DNA from: an uncultured Chloroflexia bacterium
GTDB taxonomy: Bacteria > Chloroflexota > Limnocylindria > Limnocylindrales > CSP1-4
DNA: 64,000 nt
NCBI GenBank assembly: GCA_963819655.1
Contig: CAWFXA010000002.1
Span: forward strand, 1,152,001 to 1,216,000
Direction: 5' to 3'
The notes under the pieces were generated by a model, which made no database searches, was not told the origin of the DNA, and was given only the letters and a program-made list of their open reading frames with translations. Below are positions 10,325 through 23,826 of the stretch, piece after piece; positions within the stretch are counted from its first letter, which is position 1; each line of letters opens with the position of its first letter. A program made the position numbers and the translations under genes.

Positions 10325-11559
10325 CGGTGACTGGGACGCCGGTTCCGCGTCCCCCGGTCGCGCTCTACATCCACGTGCCGTTCTGCGTGTCGCTCTGTCC
10401 GTACTGCGACTTCGTGGTCATCGCGGGGTCGGCGGCGCGCGGCCCGCGCCGCCGGATCGGGCAGTTCCTCGACGCGCTCCACGTCGAGATCGACCTGCGC
10501 GCCGATGCCCTCGACCGGAGGTTCGGTGAGCCCGGCACGCGCCGACGGCCGCCACTCTCGACGGTCTATCTCGGCGGCGGCACGCCGTCTCTCCTGCCGC
10601 CCGACGAGATCGAGCGGATCCTCGCCCGCGTCCGCGAACGCTTCGGGATCGCCGAGGACGCCGAGATCACGATCGAGTCGAACCCCGGGCCCGACGAGCG
10701 CGGCGACCCGGCGGCGCTGCGCCGCGCCGGCGTGACGCGCATCTCGTTCGGTGCCCAGTCCTTCGACGACGCCGAGCTGCGCAAGCTCGGGCGGCGTCAT
10801 CGGGCGCGCCACGTGGGCGATGCGGTCGCCGGCGCGCGGGAGACGGGCATCGCGTCGATCAACATCGATCTGCTGTACGACATCCCGGACACCGACCTGC
10901 GGAGGTGGATGGCCACGCTCGACGTGGCCCTGGCGCTCGAGCCCGACCACCTCTCGCTGTATGCGCTGACGCTCGACGACCCGGTCGCCGAAGGCCTGAC
11001 CGGACCGACCGGCGACCACCTCCCGACCACCAGGGGCGCACGGCGCTGGCGCGATGCCGTCAAGCCCGGGCAGGACGAGGATCGCGCGGCCGGTCAGTAT
11101 CACTACGCCGCGCTGGCCCTGGCCGACGCCGGTTATCGCGGCTACGAGATCTCCAACTGGGCGCGGCGCGGGCATGAGAGCCGGCATAACCTGGCGTACT
11201 GGCAGCGCCTTCCGAACGAGGCGGTCGGGCCCGGCGCGCACGCGTTCGATGGGGTCGCGCGGCGCTGGACGGCGGCCCGCCTCGACCTCTATGTCGCGGC
11301 CTTGGGTGGAGCGACGCCGACGCTCCCGCCGGGCGGCGTGGACGTGCTCGACGATGCGACCGCCGTGGCCGAGTCGGTCATCCTCGGGCTCCGTCTGGAC
11401 ACCGGCGTCCCGCTCGCCACGGCCCACGAGCCGCCGCTCGCCGACCCATTCGGCTGGGCGCTGGCCGCCGAGCTCCTGACCGTCACGCCGGGGGACCGGG
11501 TGGTCCTGACGACCCGTGGGCGCCTTCTGTCGAACGAGCTGTTCTCGCGCCTCGTGTAG
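10321..11559 (+). CDS. hemW: radical SAM heme chaperone HemW
   Basis: LYIHVPFCVSLCPYCDF, GGGTPS, YEISNW, HNLAYW; lepA-hemW-hrcA context. Confidence 0.88.
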   Translation: MTVTGTPVPRPPVALYIHVPFCVSLCPYCDFVVIAGSAARGPRRRIGQFLDALHVEIDLRADALDRRFGEPGTRRRPPLSTVYLGGGTPSLLPPDEIERILARVRERFGIAEDAEITIESNPGPDERGDPAALRRAGVTRISFGAQSFDDAELRKLGRRHRARHVGDAVAGARETGIASINIDLLYDIPDTDLRRWMATLDVALALEPDHLSLYALTLDDPVAEGLTGPTGDHLPTTRGARRWRDAVKPGQDEDRAAGQYHYAALALADAGYRGYEISNWARRGHESRHNLAYWQRLPNEAVGPGAHAFDGVARRWTAARLDLYVAALGGATPTLPPGGVDVLDDATAVAESVILGLRLDTGVPLATAHEPPLADPFGWALAAELLTVTPGDRVVLTTRGRLLSNELFSRLV

Positions 11560-11572
11560 GCGGGCGGGCGCG

Positions 11573-11602
11573 TTGACACTCGGCTCGGACGACTGCTACG
11601 AT
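11573..11602 (+). promoter_or_regulatory. sigma70 promoter of the hrcA-grpE-dnaK operon
   Basis: TTGACA (11573-11578), 18 nt, TGc-TACGAT (11597-11602). Confidence 0.8.
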
Positions 11603-11615
11603 GCCTCCACGCACG

Positions 11616-11642
11616 TTAGCACTCTCACCCATCGAGTGCTAA
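11616..11642. promoter_or_regulatory. CIRCE element (HrcA operator)
   Basis: Exact consensus TTAGCACTC-N9-GAGTGCTAA. Confidence 0.97.
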
Positions 11643-11662
11643 CTACCACGGGAGAACGAGTT

Positions 11663-12733
11663 TTGGCGCGTAGAGCACGCCGTCCACTCGGCCCGTTGGA
11701 CCTCCGCTCCCAGGCGATCCTCCGGGCCGTCATCGAGGAATACGTCACATCGGCACAGCCGGTCGGCAGCCAGGCGCTCGTCGAGCGCTACGGCCTCGGC
11801 GTGTCGAGCGCCACCGTGCGCAACATCCTTGCCGAGCTGGAACGTGACGGGCTGCTGACGCATCCGCACACCAGTGCCGGTCGGATGCCGACGGACGCCG
11901 GGTACCGGTTCTACGTCGAGACGATCGTGGATGCGGTGCCGCTGTCGGCGGTCGAGCAGCTCATGATCCGCCACCAGTTCGGCCAGGTGGAGTTCGCGAG
12001 CGAGCATTGGTTCCGGCTCGCCGCCACGACGCTCGCCGGGCTGACCCGGTCGGCCGGACTCGCCACTCCCGCCAAGCCCACTGCCGCACACATCCGGCGC
12101 GTCGACCTGGTGGCGGTCAACGAGCGGATGGCGAGCCTCATCCTCGTGCTCCGCGAAGGCGCGATCAAGCAGGCGACGGTCCCGCTCGACGAAGAAGACG
12201 CCATCGACCAGGCCACGCTCAACCGCGTCGCCGGTCTCCTGAACGAGCACCTCGTCGACGCGACAGCGACGGCTGCCGAAACGACGCTGTCCAAGCTCGA
12301 CGAGGACGAGCCCATCCAACGGACCGCCAGGCGGGTCGCCGAGCGCATCGTCCGGATCCTTCATGACTACGACGCGGGGGCGGTCGAGGAGGTGTTCTCG
12401 GACGGGCTCCTCAACGTCATGGAAGCGCCCGAGTTCGCGCAGAGCGACAAGCTGCGGCAGGTCTTCACGGCCCTCGAGAACCGCGCCTACCTCGGCGAGC
12501 TCGTCGGAAGCGTCGCGGGGTCGGGTCGGGTCAGGGTGCTGATCGGCGCCGAGAACCCGCGCGCCGAGATGCACCACGTCTCGCTCGTCCTGGCGCCGTA
12601 CGGCCGCCCAGGCCGCGCGCTGGGCGTCGTGGGAGTGCTCGGTCCGACGCGGATGAGCTATCGACACGCGATCGGCACGGTGCGCTTCGTGTCCGGTCTG
12701 ATGAATGAACTGGTGGATCACCTGTATGCCTGA
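11663..12733 (+). CDS. hrcA: heat-inducible transcription repressor
   Basis: QPVGS, SSATVRN, HPHTSAGRMPT, GVLGPTRMSY; TTG start after GGAG. Confidence 0.95.
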   Translation: MARRARRPLGPLDLRSQAILRAVIEEYVTSAQPVGSQALVERYGLGVSSATVRNILAELERDGLLTHPHTSAGRMPTDAGYRFYVETIVDAVPLSAVEQLMIRHQFGQVEFASEHWFRLAATTLAGLTRSAGLATPAKPTAAHIRRVDLVAVNERMASLILVLREGAIKQATVPLDEEDAIDQATLNRVAGLLNEHLVDATATAAETTLSKLDEDEPIQRTARRVAERIVRILHDYDAGAVEEVFSDGLLNVMEAPEFAQSDKLRQVFTALENRAYLGELVGSVAGSGRVRVLIGAENPRAEMHHVSLVLAPYGRPGRALGVVGVLGPTRMSYRHAIGTVRFVSGLMNELVDHLYA

Positions 12734-13325
12734 ACAGCGACCCGCACCCGGACAACGACATCGCACGCGCGCGGAGGAGCGGGCCGAGGACATCGATATC
12801 CGCCCGACCAAACTGCTCGCGGAGATCGACGGTCTCAAGGCCGAGCTGGCCACGGCATCGACGCAGGCAGACGACTACCTCGCGGCGCTCCAGCGCGAGC
12901 GTGCCGAATTCCTCAACTTCAAGCGGCGGACCGCCGAAGAGCGCGAGCGCGAGGTCGGGCTTGCCGGTGAGGACCTCATCCGCAAGGTGCTGGCACTGGC
13001 CGACGACTTCGACCGCGCGATCGATGCCCGACCGGATTCGGTCGCCACGGATCCGTGGTTCGAGGGAGTAGCCGCGATCGACCGAAAGCTCCGGATCCTG
13101 CTCGACAGCGAGGGCGTGAGCCCGATCGACGCCGAGCCCGGCACCACCTTCGACCCGCGTGAGCACGAGGCCATCGCCACCGTCGCCGGCACCGGCCGGC
13201 CGGAGGGCGTGATCGTCGAGCAGGTCCGGCGTGGCTATCGACTGCGCGACCGCGTCCTGCGGCCGGCCCTCGTGGCCGTGGCCGCAACACCCGAACCCGC
13301 ACCCACCACCGACCGACCAAACTGA
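12726..13325 (+). CDS. grpE: nucleotide exchange factor GrpE
   Basis: [34 protein letters not shown]. Confidence 0.93.
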
Positions 13326-13357
13326 CACCAGATCCGAGCGAGGAGCACACACAGACC

Positions 13358-15321
<1,964 letters not shown>

Positions 15322-15322
<1 letters not shown>

Positions 15323-15574
15323 GCCTCCGGCCGTTCCTCGCAGACCCAGATCACGGCCGCCTCGGGCTCCACAAGGGCGGGGCGGCCGTTTGGCGTTCCT
15401 CGCGGCCTCCGGCCGTTCCTCGCAGACCCAGATCGCGGCTGCCATCGGGCTCCACAAAGGGCCCGAGGCGGCTTTTGACGTTCGTCGCGCGCCCCGGCCG
15501 GCCCGGGTCCGGCAGGCAGATCTCGGCCGCTCCGGGGTCCACAAGGGCCCGGGGCGGTCGTTGCCGTTCCTCGC
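15322..15574. repeat. three degenerate ~82-86 bp tandem repeats
   Basis: Units start near 15322, 15404, 15489; shared blocks cagatc, tccacaa(a)ggg and cgttcctcgc. Confidence 0.8.
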
Positions 15575-15729
15575 GGCCCGCGGTCGGCGACTCGGCCCCA
15601 AGTTTTCCTCAGCGGCTCGTCCGAGCAGCACGTGACGGACACGTATCCGTCAGTGGTTCGTTACGGCAAGCCGATGACATGAACCCAAGCGAGGATCGAG
15701 CGTGGCTTTGCTGTGCCAACGGTGCGAAC

Positions 15730-16422
15730 CTACGTCGTACCTCGTCGCGTGCTGCTCCCACGAGCCGCTGACAAGAAGATCAGCCCGGAGAGTCTGCCGG
15801 TGGGCGCCCGCACCCAACGATTGACTTCCGCGTTCCGTGTCGGGAACGCGTTCATGAATGTGGCCGCATGTTCATCGACACGGCGTCGTGCGGTGCTCGT
15901 CTCCGGCAGCACCAGCAAGCGCGCTACTTGCGTGACGGACCACCCGCGTTCACGCGCGATCTGAGGCGCCAAGCGGACTTTGCGATCAAGGGTAGCCAGC
16001 ATCCCACCGACGTCCGGGACGACCGTCTTGACTTCGACGATCAATAGCGTTCCGGTCGCCCGGTGGAACGCAAGGATGTCGATTGCTCCGCGCTCACCGA
16101 AGAAGTTGAACGACACCTCTGTCGCAACGTCCCAACCTTGGGAAGTCAGGCGTCGCACCATCGCGTCGACCAACGCGGCGTGTCTCCGATCGCGAAGTCG
16201 ATCGAGGGCCTCGCCCTGATAGAGCATCCGGACCGACAGGTAGCCGCCAAGCGCCGCGACGATCGCCGTCAGGCGGTCGAGCTGGAGGTCGCCCGCACGG
16301 CCTGCCTCGACCACGGCAATCGCCCACCTCGAGACTTTCGCCTCGGCAGCCAGTCGTCTTTGAGTCCAGCCACGTCGGCGTCGCAGCAGCCGGACGTCGC
16401 TCCCAAAACGGACCGCATCCAT
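15730..16422 (-). CDS. XRE-HTH fused to a PD-(D/E)xK nuclease-like domain
   Basis: N-terminal HTH LRRRRGWTQRRLAAEAKVS; C-terminal EVSF...IDILAF...IVEVKT. Confidence 0.75.
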   Translation of the reverse strand: MDAVRFGSDVRLLRRRRGWTQRRLAAEAKVSRWAIAVVEAGRAGDLQLDRLTAIVAALGGYLSVRMLYQGEALDRLRDRRHAALVDAMVRRLTSQGWDVATEVSFNFFGERGAIDILAFHRATGTLLIVEVKTVVPDVGGMLATLDRKVRLAPQIARERGWSVTQVARLLVLPETSTARRRVDEHAATFMNAFPTRNAEVNRWVRAPTGRLSGLIFLSAARGSSTRRGTT

Positions 16423-16499
16423 CGGGTGGAGTCTGGCCCGACCCGATTACCTCGGACTTATTCGCCGCTTATCGGGGTGTGGCCGCAACTGCGGATGCC

Positions 16500-17903
16500 T
16501 CAGCGCAGGAACAGGTCTACGCCCGGAGCGAGCGACATGGCGGCGATCACGATGGCGTATGCGACGAGCAGCAGAACGCCGGCCGCGAGATGCAGCTGGA
16601 CGTTGACGCCCATGAACGCCATCAGTCCATACGGGTTGTCGTAGTTGGGCGCCAGCCCCGAAGACACGCGACGCGCCAGGGGGATCGTCAGCAGCATCAG
16701 CAACGCCGGGATCGGCAGGACGCCGGCGACGACGCCGACCACGACGGCCGCGTAAGCCGCCACGACCGCCATGTTGTAGCCGCTGATGACAGCCGACCGT
16801 GAGAACCGCACGGGCAGGGTCCGCTTGCCAGCATGGGCATCGCCACGCCGGTCGGGGATCTCATTGACGTAGAGGATCAGCGCGACGAGGAGCGCGATCG
16901 GGATCGACGCCACGAACGGCTCCCATGACAGGGTCCCGCCGGTCTGGACGACGTACGCGCCGAGCAGCATCAGTGGCCCGAACCCGATCGCCACTGCGAT
17001 CTCGCCGAGTCCTCGATAGACGAACTTCAGCGGCGGTGCCGTATAGCCGAGCGACACGATGAACCCGACGACACCGATGACGAGCAGCGCGACCGACCCG
17101 CGTGTCGCGAGCAGCACGAGCCCGATCAGCCCCGCCGCGACATAGAAGACGGTCGCCAGTGTCGCCATCTGGCGCAGCGTCACCAGCCCGTACTGGATCA
17201 CCCGCGAACCACCACTGAACTTGGTCGGCGTCACGTTGGCGTCATCGGCCCCCTGGACCGTGTCGAAGACGTCGTTCGCGACGTTCAGCCCGAGCTGGAC
17301 GAAGGCCGCGCCTACGACCGTCAACGCGGCCGCGGCCAAATCGAAGACGCCGTGGCTCGCGGCGATCACGATGCCGAGCAGCACCGGCACGATGGTCGCG
17401 GTCAGGAAGGGCAGCCGGGTCGTGCGCAGGACGAGGGATCGGAAGCGCAGCCTCGGCTTGACGGGAGTGCCGCGCTCAAGGGACAGCGCGTCGAAGTACC
17501 GCCGCGAACGCGGCACTGACCGCTCCGAGTACTCGAAGAACGGGACCTCCGACTCGTCCCAGCCCCACGCGGAGCGCCCGACGAGCGTGAGGACGCGGGC
17601 CATCGAATCCGGGCGCATGCCCGGCGACACGCGGCCCCAGACCGTCACGTGGCGGCGCTCGTCGTAGCCATATCCGGGCTGCGGCCGAATGTGCGATCCG
17701 GTCAGGGACACCTCGCGGTTGGTCGGCACGGCCAGGCCGGTCGGCACCGGGAATGTCGCGGCGCCGCTGCGCGGATCGATCGACGCCGTGACGGCGACCG
17801 ACACGGGGTAGCCCGTGTCGTCGACCCAGGAGGCGATGTGGAACGGATAGGTTGCGAGCTTTTCGAGCCCGGTTCGGGCGTCCAGCTCCGGTGTCGAGCG
17901 CAT
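16500..17903 (-). CDS. menA: MenA/UbiA-family prenyltransferase with an extra ~155-aa N-terminal soluble (split-barrel-like) domain
   Basis: NDVFDTVQGADD and NEIPDRRGDAHAGKRTL Asp-rich motifs, GGSR, YTAPP, YRGLGE; TGATG overlap with the upstream gene. Confidence 0.75.
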   Translation of the reverse strand: MRSTPELDARTGLEKLATYPFHIASWVDDTGYPVSVAVTASIDPRSGAATFPVPTGLAVPTNREVSLTGSHIRPQPGYGYDERRHVTVWGRVSPGMRPDSMARVLTLVGRSAWGWDESEVPFFEYSERSVPRSRRYFDALSLERGTPVKPRLRFRSLVLRTTRLPFLTATIVPVLLGIVIAASHGVFDLAAAALTVVGAAFVQLGLNVANDVFDTVQGADDANVTPTKFSGGSRVIQYGLVTLRQMATLATVFYVAAGLIGLVLLATRGSVALLVIGVVGFIVSLGYTAPPLKFVYRGLGEIAVAIGFGPLMLLGAYVVQTGGTLSWEPFVASIPIALLVALILYVNEIPDRRGDAHAGKRTLPVRFSRSAVISGYNMAVVAAYAAVVVGVVAGVLPIPALLMLLTIPLARRVSSGLAPNYDNPYGLMAFMGVNVQLHLAAGVLLLVAYAIVIAAMSLAPGVDLFLR

Positions 17904-18385
17904 CACGCCGCCTCCGTGCCGACCACCGTCACGACCGGCGCCACCGATGCGTCGCCGTCCGGCCAGTACAGGACCCGCCTGGGCGTGATCTCGATAAGAG
18001 CCCGCTCGAAGAACAACGGCAGTGCCACCCGAGCCTCGAGGAACGCGACGATGGCCGGTTCCTTGGCCGACCAGATGGGGAGCAGTCGCTCCCAACCACC
18101 ATGCGGGTCGTCGGCGATGACCCGGGCATCACCCTGGATCGTGACGCGGTCGGTCCGGCCGCCGACGCTGATCGGGTCGGTGACGGACACCGACACCTTC
18201 GCATTTCGAGCGATGTGTTCGAGCTTGCGGCTGAACAGCGTCGACGAGGTCATGTAGATGCGCTCACCATCCCAGAGCGGGATCAACGGATACGTGACGG
18301 GACGCCCCTTCGGGTCCACGACCGTGAGTTCGGCGACGAGGGCCTGCGCAATGAGTTCAGCGGCGGGGGTCGGGATCGTGGCCAT
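17903..18385 (-). CDS. pyridoxamine-5'-phosphate-oxidase-like (FMN/F420 split-barrel) protein
   Basis: LTVVDPKGRP, RKLEHIARNAKVSV, VTIQGDA, IEITPRRVLYW; SD AGGAG. Confidence 0.75.
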   Translation of the reverse strand: MATIPTPAAELIAQALVAELTVVDPKGRPVTYPLIPLWDGERIYMTSSTLFSRKLEHIARNAKVSVSVTDPISVGGRTDRVTIQGDARVIADDPHGGWERLLPIWSAKEPAIVAFLEARVALPLFFERALIEITPRRVLYWPDGDASVAPVVTVVGTEAA

Positions 18386-18528
18386 GAGATCGGCTCCTGC
18401 GGTGTGGGCGTCACTGCGTCCGTGACAACCATAGCACATATCGCTACCGCTGTGTAGCACGTTTCTTCCAGGCGCCTGCCGGCTGGACGGGCGGCCGGCG
18501 ACGACGTGCTGGAGTACCATGCCCGCCC

Positions 18529-19479
18529 ATGCCGGAAACCGCCGAGTCGGTCGACTCGACCTCGCTCATCCATGCCCGCGGACTGACCAAGCGCTTCGGA
18601 GATATCACCGCGGTCGACGCCATCGATTTCGACGTCGCTCCCGGCGAATCCTTCGGCTTCCTTGGACCGAACGGCGCGGGCAAGACGTCGACGATGCGGA
18701 TGATCGGCTGCGTGTCGCCGCTGAGCGGCGGGTCGCTGCGCATCCTCGGCCTCGACCCAGGCCGTGACGGCCCGCAGATCCGTGGGCGGCTCGGCGTCGT
18801 GCCCCAGCAGGACACGCTCGACACCGAGCTGACCGTCCGCGAGAACCTCCTGCTCTATGGTCGCTACTTCGGATTGAGCCACGCCGAGTGTTCCCGGCGT
18901 GCCGACGAGCTGCTCGAATTCGCCCAGCTTACCGAGCGCGCCGGCGATCAGGTCGAGCACATGTCGGGCGGCATGAAACGCCGGCTGACGATCGCCCGCA
19001 GCCTCATCAACGAACCCGAGCTCCTGTTGCTCGACGAGCCGACCACCGGTCTCGACCCACAGGCGCGTCACCTGCTGTGGGACCGGCTGTACCGGCTCAA
19101 GCAACGCGGCGTGACCCTGGTCCTGACCACCCACTACATGGACGAGGCCGAGCAGCTGTGCGATCGACTCGTCGTCATGGACAAGGCGAGGATCGTGGCC
19201 GAAGGCTCGCCGCGCTCCTTGATCGAGCAGTACTCGACACGTGAGGTGACCGAGCTGCGCTTCGCGCCCGGCGTCCAGGACACGCTCGACGGTCAACTCG
19301 AAGGCCTAGCCGAACGGGTCGAGCGGTTGCCGGACCGCGTGCTGCTCTATGCCGACGACGGGGAGGCCGCAGTCGCGGCGGCCCACGCGCGCGGACTCGA
19401 GCCCGAGACCGTCCTCGTCCGACGGTCGTCGCTCGAGGACGTCTTCCTGCGCCTCACCGGGCGCTCGCTGATCGACTGA
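18529..19479 (+). CDS. ABC-2 exporter ATP-binding protein (NodI/DrrA-like)
   Basis: GPNGAGKT, MSGGMKRRL, LLLDEPTTGLD, SLEDVFL. Confidence 0.92.
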   Translation: MPETAESVDSTSLIHARGLTKRFGDITAVDAIDFDVAPGESFGFLGPNGAGKTSTMRMIGCVSPLSGGSLRILGLDPGRDGPQIRGRLGVVPQQDTLDTELTVRENLLLYGRYFGLSHAECSRRADELLEFAQLTERAGDQVEHMSGGMKRRLTIARSLINEPELLLLDEPTTGLDPQARHLLWDRLYRLKQRGVTLVLTTHYMDEAEQLCDRLVVMDKARIVAEGSPRSLIEQYSTREVTELRFAPGVQDTLDGQLEGLAERVERLPDRVLLYADDGEAAVAAAHARGLEPETVLVRRSSLEDVFLRLTGRSLID

Positions 19480-20285
19480 TGGCGGCCGCCATCCGACCGT
19501 TGGCCGGGATCGGCCGTGTCTTCGAGCACCGCTTCGTCATCTACCGACGGACGTTCCGGGCGAGCCTGTTCAGCTCCTTCCTGACGCCGATCATGTTCCT
19601 CGCCGCCATGGGCCTGGGGCTGGGCGGATACGTCGATCAGTCGGGCGCTGCCGCGCTCGGCGGGGTGTCGTACCTGGCCTTCCTGGCCCCGGGGCTGCTC
19701 GTCGCCACGTGTATGCAGGCAGCCGCGTTCGAGGCGACCTTCCCGATCATGGCCGGGCTCGTGTGGAGCCGCGTGTACCACGCGATGTTTGCGACGCCGA
19801 TCACCCCGCGCGACATCGCACTCGGCAACATCGTGTGGTTCGCGGCGCGACTGCTCCTGATCGCGACCGTGTTCACGGTCGTGATCGTCCTGTTCGGAGC
19901 CGCGACGTCGCCGCTCGTCATCCTGGCGATCCCGGTCGCGGCATTGACAGGCCTGGGCTTCGCCACCCCGATCGCTGCGTTCGCCGCGACGCAGCGCACG
20001 CCCGAACGGTTCGCTGCGATCTTCCGGTTCGGGATCATGCCGTTGTTCCTGTTCTCCGGCACCTTCTACCCGATCGAGTCGTTGCCCGCGTTCGTCCAGC
20101 CGCTGGCCTGGCTGACCCCGCTGTACCACGGCGTCGTCGTGGCGCGCGGCCTGTCGCTCGGCACCATCGGCCAGGATCCGACCATCGAGATGGCGGTCGT
20201 CCACCTGGCGATCCTCGTGGCCTTCGCGGTCGTCGGCGCTGTCCTCACCGTCCGCACCGTCACCGCAAAGCTGTTGCGCGGATGA
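19479..20285 (+). CDS. ABC-2 permease (NodJ-like)
   Basis: YLAFLAPGL, PLFLFSGTFYP; about 6 TM. Confidence 0.88.
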   Translation: MAAAIRPLAGIGRVFEHRFVIYRRTFRASLFSSFLTPIMFLAAMGLGLGGYVDQSGAAALGGVSYLAFLAPGLLVATCMQAAAFEATFPIMAGLVWSRVYHAMFATPITPRDIALGNIVWFAARLLLIATVFTVVIVLFGAATSPLVILAIPVAALTGLGFATPIAAFAATQRTPERFAAIFRFGIMPLFLFSGTFYPIESLPAFVQPLAWLTPLYHGVVVARGLSLGTIGQDPTIEMAVVHLAILVAFAVVGAVLTVRTVTAKLLRG

Positions 20286-21082
20286 CCGCGCTGCCGCTCA
20301 CGTCCGCCCTGCTCATCGGCAGCCGTCGGTCGCTGCGCCTCGTCGAGCGCAATATCTTCGTGTACAGCCACACATGGATCGTGCTGCTGTCGGGCTTCTT
20401 CGAGCCGCTGTTCTACCTGCTCAGCATCGGGTTCGGGCTGGGCGCGCTGATCGGCACGATCCCGGGGCCTGACGGGCAGCCGATCCCGTACCAATTGTTC
20501 GTCGCCCCTGCGCTCCTGGCGAGCGCCGCGATGAACGGCGCGATCAACGAGAGCACGTTCAACTTCTTCTTCAAGCTCAACTACAACAAGACATTCACAG
20601 CCATCCTGGCGACCCCGCTGTCCGCCGGCGACATCGCGGTGGGCGAGCTGATCTGGGCGCTCATCCGCGGCGGCCTCTACGCGATCGGCTTCATGGTCGT
20701 CCTCGTGGTCCTCGGCCTGGTCGTGTCGCCGTGGGTCGTGCTCGCGGTTCCGGCTTCCCTGCTGGTCGGATTCGCGTTCGGGGCGGTCGGGATGGCAGCC
20801 ACGTCATTCATGAAGACGTGGCAGGACTTCGATCTCGTCCAACTCGTCGTCCTCCCGCTGTTCCTGTTCTCGGGGACGTTCTATCCGATCGAGACCTATC
20901 CCGAGCCCATCCAGGTCATCGTCCAGCTGTCGCCGCTGTACCAGGGCGTCGCCCTCATCCGTGCGCTGACGATCGGCGCGATCTCGCCGATCCTGCTCGT
21001 CCACGTCGTGTACCTGCTGGTCCTGGGGTTCGTGGGCCTGTACGTGGTCTCACGCCGGCTCGACAAGCTTCTGCTCCAGTGA
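20282..21082 (+). CDS. ABC-2 permease (second subunit)
   Basis: FFEPLFYL, FVAPALL, PLFLFSGTFYP; ATGA overlap. Confidence 0.88.
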   Translation: MTALPLTSALLIGSRRSLRLVERNIFVYSHTWIVLLSGFFEPLFYLLSIGFGLGALIGTIPGPDGQPIPYQLFVAPALLASAAMNGAINESTFNFFFKLNYNKTFTAILATPLSAGDIAVGELIWALIRGGLYAIGFMVVLVVLGLVVSPWVVLAVPASLLVGFAFGAVGMAATSFMKTWQDFDLVQLVVLPLFLFSGTFYPIETYPEPIQVIVQLSPLYQGVALIRALTIGAISPILLVHVVYLLVLGFVGLYVVSRRLDKLLLQ

Positions 21083-21765
21083 CCGACCGGGCCGCGCTCG
21101 CGGCCCTCACCGCGGAGATCGTCGTGTGCAGGCGGTGTCCGCGCCTCGTCGAGTGGCGGGAACGGGTCGCGCACGAGAAGGTCGCGCGATTCCGCGACGA
21201 GACGTACTGGGGCCGGCCGGTGCCGGGCTTCGGCGACCCTGACGCGCGGATCCTGTTGGTGGGTCTGGCACCCGCGGCCCATGGCGGAAACCGAACGGGA
21301 CGGGTCTTCACCGGGGACGCGTCCGGTGACTTCCTGTGGGCGGCGCTCCATCGATCCGGCCTCGCCGATCGGCCGTCGTCGCGGCGCGCCGACGACGGGT
21401 TGACGCTCACCGACGTCTACATCGCTGCGGCCGTGCGGTGCGCCCCGCCGGCCAACAAGCCGACGCCGGACGAGCGCGACAACTGCGCGCCGTACCTGGC
21501 CCGCGAGCTCGGCCTGTTGGAGCGCGTCCGGGGCCTGCTAGCGCTCGGTGCCTACGGCTGGGACGCCGCCCTCCGCGCGATGGCTGCCAACGGGCACACG
21601 GTCCGGGTCAAGCCACGGTTCGGTCACGGTGCTGTCGCGGAGGTCGGTTCGTATCGGCTGATCGGCTCGTACCACCCGAGTCAGCAGAACACGTTCACGG
21701 GCAAGCTGACGCCCGCGATGTTCGATGCCGTCATCGCGACGGCCAAGGAACTCGCCCTCTCGTAG
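21079..21765 (+). CDS. udgB: family 5 uracil-DNA glycosylase
   Basis: CRRCPRL, GLAPAAHGGNRTGRVFTGD, CAPPANKP, YHPSQQN. Confidence 0.88.
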   Translation: MTDRAALAALTAEIVVCRRCPRLVEWRERVAHEKVARFRDETYWGRPVPGFGDPDARILLVGLAPAAHGGNRTGRVFTGDASGDFLWAALHRSGLADRPSSRRADDGLTLTDVYIAAAVRCAPPANKPTPDERDNCAPYLARELGLLERVRGLLALGAYGWDAALRAMAANGHTVRVKPRFGHGAVAEVGSYRLIGSYHPSQQNTFTGKLTPAMFDAVIATAKELALS

Positions 21766-21777
21766 ACTTCTCGCTCG

Positions 21778-22890
21778 ATGGCCACCACGGAGCGCGATCT
21801 GTACGAGGTCCTCGGCGTGCAGCGCGGTGCGAGCGACGCCGAGATCAAGCGCGCCTTCCGCAAGCTCGCCCAACAGTGGCACCCGGACGTGAACAAGGAT
21901 CCACAGGCATCAGCTCGTTTCAAGGAGGCGAGCGAGGCCTACCAGATCCTGTCCGATCCGGATCGCCGCCAGCGGTACGACACGTTCGGCCGCGCCGGGG
22001 TGGATGGCGGGGCCGCGGGAGCCGGCTTCGAGGGGTTCGGCGGGTTCAGCGACATCTTCGACGCGTTCTTCGGCGGCGCGGCGTCCGGGTCCGCGCGACG
22101 GGGCAGGCCGCAACCCGGCTCCGATCTGCGGTACGACATGCGTGTCACGTTCGAGGAGGCCGTCAGGGGGACGGAGAAGGAGATCGATTTCCGCGCGCTC
22201 GGCCGGTGCGAGACATGCAGTGGCACGGGAGCGGCACCCGGGACCGAGGCGACGACATGTCCGCAGTGCGAAGGTCGCGGCGAGGTGCGCAGCGTCCGCC
22301 AGACGATGCTCGGGCAGATGGTCAACGTGAGCGCCTGCCCGCGCTGTCGGGGTGAGGGCAAGATCGTCGAGACCCCGTGCGAGACATGCAAGGGCGACGG
22401 GCGGACCGAGCGCAAGCGAACGCTGCGGGTGACGATCCCAGCCGGGATCGACGAGGGCCACCAGATCCGGCTGACCAACGAGGGCGAGGTCGGGCCGCGC
22501 GGCGGACCTCCCGGATCGTTGTACGTGGCTGTCCATGTCGCCCCGCACCCGAGCCTCAAGCGCGATGGGACGGAGCTCTACTACGAGGCCGGGATCTCGA
22601 TCGCCCAGGCGGCACTCGGGACGACCCTCCAGGTACCGACCATCGACGGGTCCGAAGAGGTCGAGATCAAGCCAGGGACCCAGCCGGATACCGAGATCCG
22701 CCTGCGCGGCAAGGGCGTGCCCCATCTCCGACGAGCAGGCTCGCGCGGCGACCTCCACGTGCTCGTCGATGTCGAGGTCCCGAAGAAGCTGTCGAAGAAG
22801 CAGCGCGAGCTCCTCGAGGCATACGCCCGCGAGTCGGGTGAAAAGGTCGGCGGATCGGGCGGCATCCTCGACAAGCTCGGACTGGGGTGA
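21778..22890 (+). CDS. dnaJ: chaperone DnaJ
   Basis: J domain with HPD, G/F region, four CxxCxGxG repeats. Confidence 0.97.
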
Positions 22891-23826
22891 AGTCCGAGCC
22901 ACCCGCGGCCTGGCTCGAACTCGCTGTCGAGGCGGACCTCGAGGCGGTCGAGGCGGTCAGTGAGATCCTCGGACGGGTGGCGAGCGGCGGGACGTCGGTC
23001 GAGCCCGGGTTCGAGCTCGTCGACGAGGGGCTCGACGCGCGGATCGATCCCGACGCGACCGGCGGTCGTCCGCGGATATGCCCCGGCGGTGGATCCGGCG
23101 GCCGCCGAAGCGGCCGCTGCCGAGGTCGCGGAAGCGCTCGGCCACCTGCAGGCGTTCGGCCTGCGGCCCATCGGTGAGCTCCGGACCCGCATCGTCCACG
23201 AGGCGGACTGGGCCGAGGCATGGAAGGCATTCTTTCCCGTGCTGCGCGTGGGCCGCCGGCTCGTGATCCGTCCGACGTGGCGCCGCCACCGCGCGCGCCC
23301 GGGCGACGTCGTGCTCGCGCTCGATCCCGGGATGGCCTTCGGGACCGGCCTCCACCCGACGACCCGCCTGTGTCTCGCGGCTCTCGAACCACTGGCGGAC
23401 GATGGCCGGCTCGCTGACGCCACGGTCCTCGACGTCGGATGCGGCTCGGGGATCCTGGCCATCGCCGCGCTCCGACTCGGTGCCGCGTCGGCACTGGGCG
23501 TCGACACCGACCAGATCGCGATCGAGTCGACGCACACCAATGCGCGACGGAACCGGCTCGCACGCCGGCTTCGTGCGCGCGCGGGCAGCCTTCCGACCGG
23601 GGAGGAGCCCTTCGACGTCGTCCTGGCCAATCTGATCGCCGGCGTCCTCGTCCCGCTGGCCGCGGAACTCCGCGACGAGGTCCGACCGGGCGGCACGCTC
23701 GTGGCGTCGGGCATCTTCGTCGACCGCGAGAGCGACGTCCGGGCGGCCTTCGAGCCCGCCGGCCTGCGCGTCGTCGACCGATCGGTCGAGGGCGACTGGA
23801 TCGCACTGGTCGCCCGGCGGCGCTGA
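22887..23826 (+). pseudogene. prmA: ribosomal protein L11 methyltransferase with an apparent one-base frameshift
   Basis: N-terminus WLELAVEAD in one frame; DWAEAWK, DPGMAFGTGLHPTT, LDVGCGSGIL in another; removing one C from CCC 23049-23051 joins them (IDPTRPAVVRGY). Confidence 0.8.

Follow-up and report, generated by a model that had tools for sequence, protein, structure and literature searches.

Why would a membrane prenyltransferase of the menaquinone type carry a soluble domain of its own, and why would its gene be coupled to that of a small protein from a flavin- and F420-binding family? The question is raised by two overlapping genes in a stretch of 64,000 nucleotides (nt) of contig CAWFXA010000002.1 (the window), which comes from an uncultured bacterium of the Limnocylindrales (Chloroflexota). 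The downstream gene encodes a fusion of 467 amino acids (aa), in which a domain at the N terminus (N-domain) precedes a MenA-like prenyltransferase of the UbiA superfamily, and the upstream gene encodes a partner protein of 160 aa; together they are called the module here. Our data support the conclusion that the two genes are an obligate and mostly translationally coupled pair across distant lineages, comprising bacteria and Caldarchaeales archaea. As to its function, we tentatively propose that a membrane-tethered pair of split barrels converts a naphthoquinone obtained by salvage into the quinol immediately before it is prenylated. We put this proposal somewhat below an even chance, and the view that the two genes act as one functional unit belongs to it and is held equally tentatively. 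The features of the module are given below by their positions in the window; both genes lie on the minus strand.

17903..18385, minus strand: partner gene, encoding a PNPOx/PPOX-class split-barrel protein of 160 aa (open reading frame; matches to PF01243, TIGR03618 and 3f7e).
16500..17903, minus strand: fused gene, 467 aa, N-terminal barrel followed by the prenyltransferase (open reading frame).
17901..17915, minus strand: junction of the two genes, GGAGG (17915-17911) and then TGATG (17905-17901), as read from the sequence.
17544..17903, minus strand: N-domain, residues 1-120 of the 467-aa protein, a predicted divergent split beta-barrel outside any Pfam family.
17424..17543, minus strand: residues 121-160, two predicted helices and a basic linker, connecting the barrel with the first helix in the membrane (from the secondary structure in the two models).
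16500..17423, minus strand: residues 161-467 and the stop codon, prenyltransferase domain of the UbiA superfamily, MenA/UBIAD1-like (PF01040).

Conservation of the pair was determined in two sets of loci. The first consisted of the 80 best of 416 species genomes that encode the N-domain, and the second of 80 metagenome loci, with a GC content of 28-72%, obtained from a scan that was seeded with distant members. The partner was located directly upstream and on the same strand in 79 of the 80 genome loci, the remaining one being without upstream sequence, and in all 70 metagenome loci that had room for it (the other 10 begin no more than about 170 nt from the end of their contig). In the metagenome loci the identity was 41-78% for the prenyltransferase and 28-64% for the N-domain, and both the N-domain and the partner were found to be conserved down to 28-40% identity. 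The flanking genes were unrelated housekeeping genes that differed wholly between lineages. Several loci had archaeal flanks (archease, A/V-type ATPase, NurA), and one cluster was named Candidatus Caldarchaeales. A sample of 201 genomes from the phylum yielded two Chloroflexota genomes outside the class, both with the same arrangement of the pair.

At the junction in the window the stop codon of the partner gene, TGA (17905-17903), and the start codon of the fused gene, ATG (17903-17901), have one base (A) in common, and GGAGG stands 7 nt ahead of this ATG. An earlier note, made from the letters of this DNA, had given the coordinates and strand of the pair and the TGATG overlap, and all of them were borne out by reading of the sequence. 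An overlap of stop and start by 1 or 4 nt was seen in 78 of the 80 genome loci and 47 of the 70 metagenome loci; as the start nearest to the stop was taken, these counts are biased towards overlap. The frequency of such overlaps suggests coupled translation of the pair. No sequencing run contained more than 0.15 of the sampled words. In one RNA library contigs touched the prenyltransferase gene in two short pieces, without bridging the junction.

The fusion was found to be genuine. A read error at this place, which would have joined two separate genes, is contradicted by hundreds of relatives of the same length: a word-indexed search gave over 100 clusters with 80-94% identity, almost all of them 467-468 aa long, and 'Candidatus Limnocylindrales' is among their names. 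When the N-domain alone was searched with HMMER against 1.84 billion representatives, only 170 proteins were retrieved at E<=0.001. Among 32 N-domain representatives that were scanned for families, UbiA was present in 19 of the 22 with a length of at least 374 aa, and the other three were visibly frameshifted translations; the 10 short ones were without any Pfam family. The short 'stand-alone' proteins measured 134-177 aa and may be truncated calls; one of them, located on a 1.6-kb contig, was annotated as a prenyltransferase. Because the matches are so few and the long members carry UbiA, the N-domain is, on the grounds of sequence searches, a small family almost confined to this prenyltransferase.

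Next we consider what the N-domain is. Residues 1-160 of the fused protein gave no match to a Pfam or NCBIfam family, and a profile search of the PDB with the N-domain returned only 2i02, at E 0.16. A structure model of the domain was made with AlphaFold2 from a 36-row alignment and had a predicted local distance difference test score (pLDDT) of 92.2; it consists of a helix, about seven strands and then helices. Comparison of the model with the PDB by Foldseek resulted in 54 matches at E<=0.001. All matches listed were PNPOx-like barrels, and they included the F420 biliverdin reductase Rv2074, MSMEG_6526, NimA, the GluTR-binding protein and NohD. F420-bound FDOR-B proteins were also among the fold matches. 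Based on the model and these matches, a split beta-barrel fold of the N-domain is well supported, as the earlier note had supposed. The model of the full-length fused protein (pLDDT 89.6, predicted template modelling score (pTM) 0.79) formed a confident single body. Conserved residues W115-D116-E117 and Y136 are located at the start of the helix and linker segment (residues 121-160).

The same note had also read a sequence echo between the N-domain and the partner from two pairs of motifs. BLASTP of the partner against the fused protein was not significant (E 6.2), and hhalign with profiles of low diversity, built from near-identical partners, gave a probability of 0.5%. With diverse profiles, residues 14-93 of the N-domain were aligned with residues 10-92 of the partner, co-linear over 79 columns, with a probability of 28.5% and E 6.1e-4. 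Both motif pairs fall inside this alignment; the similarity as such is very weak and lies at the edge of detection. In a metagenome protein of 190 aa (P0227) the first half of the N-domain is followed by the second half of the partner: about 105 residues at its start are N-domain-like, and the remainder shares 61% identity with the C-terminal half of the partner. This protein may be an assembly chimera or a real recombinant, and it was set aside as evidence of homology. As a separate observation, the language-model neighbours of the N-domain in the ESM Atlas were three clusters of hypothetical proteins of 143-154 aa, commonest in Actinomycetota (score 0.92-0.93), and free-standing relatives of the domain may thus exist in that phylum.

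The partner protein was easier to place. It matched PNPOx_N (PF01243) with 42.9 bits against a cut-off of 28.1, which confirms its earlier assignment to the PPOX-like split-barrel family, and a profile of the partner family matched the F420 reductase MSMEG_3380 (PDB 3f7e) at E 6.5e-7. In a scan of diverse partners PF01243 was detected at E<=1e-5 in most loci, not in all. Partner sequences at least 41% identical to that of the window had 22 invariant columns. Judging from these matches the partner probably binds F420 or a flavin.

The prenyltransferase had been described as complete and of the MenA type. UbiA (PF01040) was detected at residues 171-410 of the fused protein with 103 bits, and 33 sequences shared the invariant segments N210-D211-x-x-D214...D220 and N347...D351...D355, which we take to be the two Asp-rich motifs of the UbiA superfamily and which place the protein in it. 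The closest solved relative was UBIAD1 (8djk), both by sequence (E 1.7e-12) and as the top match in Foldseek (template modelling score 0.77 on the target). The leading NCBIfam matches of the fused protein were all MenA models, and all were below their cut-offs: the best was NF004751 (143.6 bits against 264), TIGR00751 reached 82.1 bits against 102.15, and with further MenA equivalog models, NF004749 and TIGR02235 among them, the whole protein stayed below the cut-off as well. The description thus holds for fold and motifs, but not for membership in the MenA equivalogs.

This difference was also seen at the level of the class, in a sample of 61 genomes that includes one unpublished genome (G058). 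The prenyltransferases of the module scored 127-171 bits, as compared to 290-324 bits for true MenA. True MenA was found in 11 of the 61 genomes, and 10 of these also have MenB (G023 does not). In the 10 genomes with MenB, menA is located on the same contig as menB and, in all but one, directly beside it. A maximum-likelihood tree was made from 36 prenyltransferase domains, all other than experimentally characterised MenA. The module sequences formed one clade (support 100/99), positioned beside and not inside the canonical MenA clade of the class (86/85), and apart from the two other MenA-like groups. By sequence, then, the prenyltransferase of the module is not canonical MenA. Outside the module clade, the prenyltransferase closest to it carries an N-terminal PAS domain instead. 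It is encoded in a genome of about 1.2 Mb (G011; L195:1495-2763, minus strand) as a 422-aa fusion of PAS_9 to a MenA-like prenyltransferase, and the gene is followed by a carbon-nitrogen hydrolase gene and a luciferase-like gene.

The genome to which the window belongs was searched for the pathway that such an enzyme would serve. It comprises 3.49 Mb in 3 contigs and is estimated to be 91% complete. The presence of NuoH (complex I), cytochrome b and heme O synthase indicates that it needs a quinone, and it also encodes CofD for F420 synthesis. No MenB, MenD or MenG/UbiE was found over the cut-off in this genome, and there was no match to MqnA/D (PF02621) or UbiD. The absence of other men genes near the module, pointed out earlier, is therefore correct and extends to the whole genome. 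Four genes of the UbiA family are present, encoding heme O synthase, the module enzyme, a second MenA-like protein of another clade and an unclassified one; the module gene is the best MenA-like candidate among them. With a genome without a known source of 1,4-dihydroxy-2-naphthoate (DHNA) and an enzyme that is not canonical MenA, a non-standard or salvaged acceptor gains weight. Many Chloroflexota are said to be without a known quinone pathway in a survey from 2025 (bioRxiv 10.1101/2025.09.17.676790), and our literature searches found no paper on Limnocylindria together with menaquinone.

Two of the other genes have features of their own. The second MenA-like gene (L003:1237-2361, plus strand, contig C1) has PRK05951 as its best model, at 130.7 bits and below the cut-off. 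In the tree it falls into a well-supported clade of its own, members of which are widespread in the class, and its neighbours are a pyridoxal-phosphate enzyme with a CBS domain and an open reading frame without a family. The heme O synthase lies in an open frame of 612 aa on the same contig (L001:1405-3243, minus strand), at residues ~309-610, and residues 5-143 of that frame match the C-terminal part of the heme A synthase model. This may represent a fusion of CtaA with CtaB, or two neighbouring genes may share the frame.

Within the 61 genomes of the class, the module was present in 20 and MenB in 10; both were found in 2 (G017 and G042) and neither in 33. MqnA/D over the cut-off was found in none of the 61. 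In the window's own family (f1) six genomes had only the module, seven only MenB, one both and four neither, and both states occurred inside two genera. CofD was present in all 20 genomes with the module. The class also has another fusion of a similar kind, in which a luciferase-like (LLM, PF00296) domain is joined N-terminally to a MenA-like prenyltransferase. This LLM-UbiA fusion measures 658-794 aa, is present in 26 of the 61 genomes, and was seen in all 8 loci that were fetched (L171-L178, from G010, G034, G014, G020, G053, G004, G016 and G033), for example:

L172:1975-3954, plus strand: LLM-UbiA fusion.

The best NCBIfam matches of the LLM domains were LLM models of the F420 type, all below the cut-off. 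All 10 genomes without CofD carry the LLM-UbiA fusion, which argues against a strict requirement of this fusion for F420. Only 2 genomes (G014 and G026) had the LLM-UbiA fusion together with the module, and 50 of the 61 genomes had one or more of the three (module, LLM-UbiA fusion, MenB). The module, the LLM-UbiA fusion and menB-menA thus rarely co-occur, a complementarity that is suggestive.

As a neighbour of the pair in the window, a transporter was found upstream:

18529..21082, plus strand: ABC-2 transporter, one ATPase and two permeases, divergent from the module (Pfam ABC_tran, ABC2_membrane).

A divergent ABC-2 transporter was found in 73 of the 80 Limnocylindria-type loci, as compared to 4 of the 80 metagenome loci; of these 80, 26 extend upstream by 3 kb or more. 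As a companion of the pair it is confined to the Limnocylindria-type loci, and it was ruled out as a part of the unit. The setting of the pair in the window, between dnaK and dnaJ, is lineage-specific in the same way. There the heat-shock set hrcA-grpE-dnaK ... dnaJ-prmA (11516-23826) is split by other genes, namely an XRE-type regulator (15730-16422, minus strand), the module, the ABC-2 transporter and a family-4-type uracil-DNA glycosylase (~21139-21765). The same gene order was seen around the heat-shock set in most Limnocylindria-type loci.

What could the two barrels do for the prenyltransferase? Prenylation of the Friedel-Crafts type by MenA or UBIAD1 requires an electron-rich quinol. 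UBIAD1 is reported to form no menaquinone-4 (MK-4) without a reductant, as menadione must first be reduced (PMC4398444), split-barrel FDORs are described as reducing quinones, menaquinone included, with F420H2 (PMC8498797), and bacteria in which just the final men genes are retained are described as growing on external DHNA or menadione (PMC9704088). In the proposed mechanism the partner would pair with the fused N-domain barrel and so mimic the obligate dimer of split-barrel flavoproteins. A cofactor site would thereby come to lie close to the active site of the membrane enzyme, at its cytoplasmic face; this sidedness is suggested by the general topology of UbiA enzymes and by the confident single-body model (pTM 0.79). 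With F420H2 or reduced flavin, the pair would reduce the head group of a naphthoquinone to the quinol. The quinol would be handed to the MenA-like domain and prenylated at once, giving a lipid quinone of the (demethyl)menaquinol type. The head group (DHNA, oxidised DHNA, 1,4-naphthoquinone or menadione) would most likely be taken up from outside, because the genome is without every known route to the ring.

Several results weigh against this salvage-and-reduction mechanism. The best NCBIfam match of the partner, TIGR03618 for the F420-dependent PPOX class, reached 43.6 bits against a cut-off of 79.05. No cofactor-binding residues were identified. None of 23 members of the N-domain family matched a PNPOx model even at E<=5, the domain has no recognisable flavin-family signature, and PilZ/YcgR-type barrels, which have no flavin, were also among its fold matches. 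Nor was any system identified that would take up a head group. In the class, G017 and G042 carry the module together with menB-menA, which shows that the two are not strict alternatives, and 11 of the 61 genomes have neither the module nor the LLM-UbiA fusion nor MenB; lack of a known pathway is therefore common in the class and need not be explained by the module. CofD discriminates little, as it is present in 51 of the 61 genomes overall and in 31 of the 41 without the module. Related genomes are also not independent observations, and the complementarity was for this reason treated as suggestive only.

The target of the barrels could instead be the quinone pool or the product of the enzyme. 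They would be either a Ddn-like F420H2:menaquinone oxidoreductase anchored to the membrane through the prenyltransferase, or a reductase that holds the new prenylquinone in the reduced state until a later step. PMC8498797 describes FDOR split barrels whose physiological substrate is menaquinone, and F420 synthesis in every module genome and the F420-bound FDOR-B proteins among the fold matches would both suit such a role. Why the barrel is fused to a biosynthetic enzyme in every full-length member would be left unexplained by it, however, as would the rarity of the module and the classical pathway together; for methylation as the later step, the genome has no MenG/UbiE over the cut-off. We regard this role as unlikely.

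It is similarly improbable that the acceptor is something other than a naphthoquinone, with the barrels binding some other planar molecule (for example a phenazine, a flavin or deazaflavin, or a tetrapyrrole or bilin) and presenting it to the enzyme, and that the product is a different prenylated cofactor or a membrane redox carrier. The missing DHNA source would leave room for it. Against it, the nearest neighbour of the module clade is the canonical MenA clade of the class (86/85), the closest solved relative is UBIAD1, and a distribution nearly exclusive with menB-menA fits a product that is shared with that pathway.

The N-domain and partner might also be regulatory, that is, a cap that senses a cofactor or ligand and gates the prenyltransferase by redox or substrate state. 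The PAS domain on the nearest outside prenyltransferase (G011), the lack of recognisable flavin-family signatures in the N-domain and the non-enzymatic split barrels (PilZ/YcgR-N) among its fold matches all point in this direction. The partner, in contrast, retains the PNPOx signature and is strongly conserved, with its 22 invariant columns. The strict pairing and the gene overlap suggest a stoichiometric complex, though they would be compatible with a regulator too. A regulatory cap seems to us to have a small chance of being the answer. Lastly, the enzyme could be an ordinary MenA whose additional domain matters little, the men genes being missed because the assembly is incomplete. This would agree with the annotation of relatives as DHNA polyprenyltransferase by their sources and with a completeness of only an estimated 91%, but is very improbable in view of four independent pathway markers missing from a 3-contig genome, absence of MenB also from 18 of the 20 genomes of the class sample that carry the module, true class MenA at 290-324 bits beside menB in a separate clade, and conservation of the N-domain and partner down to 28-40% identity.

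On a wider view, the module, and elsewhere in the class the LLM-UbiA fusion, could be the means by which lineages without known head-group pathways get their respiratory lipid carrier. Either oxidised naphthoquinones from the environment would be salvaged with F420 or flavin as the driving reductant, or the enzymes would carry out the final step of a so far undescribed pathway that leads to a new prenylated redox carrier. We find so wide a role rather doubtful. If it were true, the two fusions would fill a part of the gap that 'no quinone pathway' denotes in Chloroflexota. A prenyltransferase with a built-in redox-type module is a concrete candidate for the supply of membrane quinone in respiring Chloroflexota without a quinone pathway. 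The pair would be the first split-barrel unit of the FDOR/PNPOx type wired directly to an enzyme of the UbiA family, and a compact case of a putative pseudo-dimer made from one free and one fused barrel, in bacteria and in Caldarchaeales archaea. Full-text literature searches, with the main texts of papers as their scope, found no description of a split-barrel or luciferase-like domain linked to an enzyme of this family, and neither 'prenyl' nor 'fused' gave a hit in the F420 review PMC8498797. The folds and chemistries are known; the novelty lies in the architecture, in a partner that is obligate, in the N-domain as a new sequence family and in the pattern of distribution.

Among known systems, MenA and human UBIAD1 are the closest to the prenyltransferase. 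They share with it the UbiA fold and both Asp-rich motifs, UBIAD1 is its best match in sequence and structure, and the module clade is sister to the canonical MenA of the class. The module enzyme differs in scoring below the MenA cut-offs, in its N-terminal domain of about 160 aa and its obligate partner gene, and in being found in genomes without the DHNA pathway. The LLM-UbiA fusion resembles it in having an oxidoreductase domain of the flavin/F420 type N-terminal to a MenA-like prenyltransferase, and the distributions of the two are largely complementary; its redox domain is an unrelated TIM barrel, however, it is a single polypeptide, and its prenyltransferase belongs to a separate clade. 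In NDC1/NdbB-type systems demethylphylloquinone is reduced before methylation by a separate NAD(P)H dehydrogenase. They resemble the proposed mechanism in needing a dedicated reductase, because one step in the synthesis of the naphthoquinone works with the quinol only, but the enzyme acts after prenylation and is neither a split barrel nor fused.

The FDORs (Ddn of FDOR-A; Rv2074, Rv1155 and MSMEG_3380 of FDOR-B) have in common with the module the split beta-barrel, which is seen in the partner and predicted in the N-domain, and the occurrence in lineages that produce F420. Reduction of quinones is described as a known activity of the superfamily in PMC8498797. The known FDORs are free-standing homodimers, soluble or membrane-associated, whereas one barrel of the module is joined covalently to a membrane prenyltransferase, and this fused barrel has lost the sequence signature of the family. 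The salvagers of DHNA that have only menA and menG, such as Porphyromonas pasteri, are without the upper men pathway and have kept the prenyltransferase, as described in PMC9704088. Their dependence on an external head group, stated in the same paper, is like the role that we propose for the module. They use a plain MenA together with MenG, whereas the module has a redox-type part of its own and its genome has no MenG over the cut-off.

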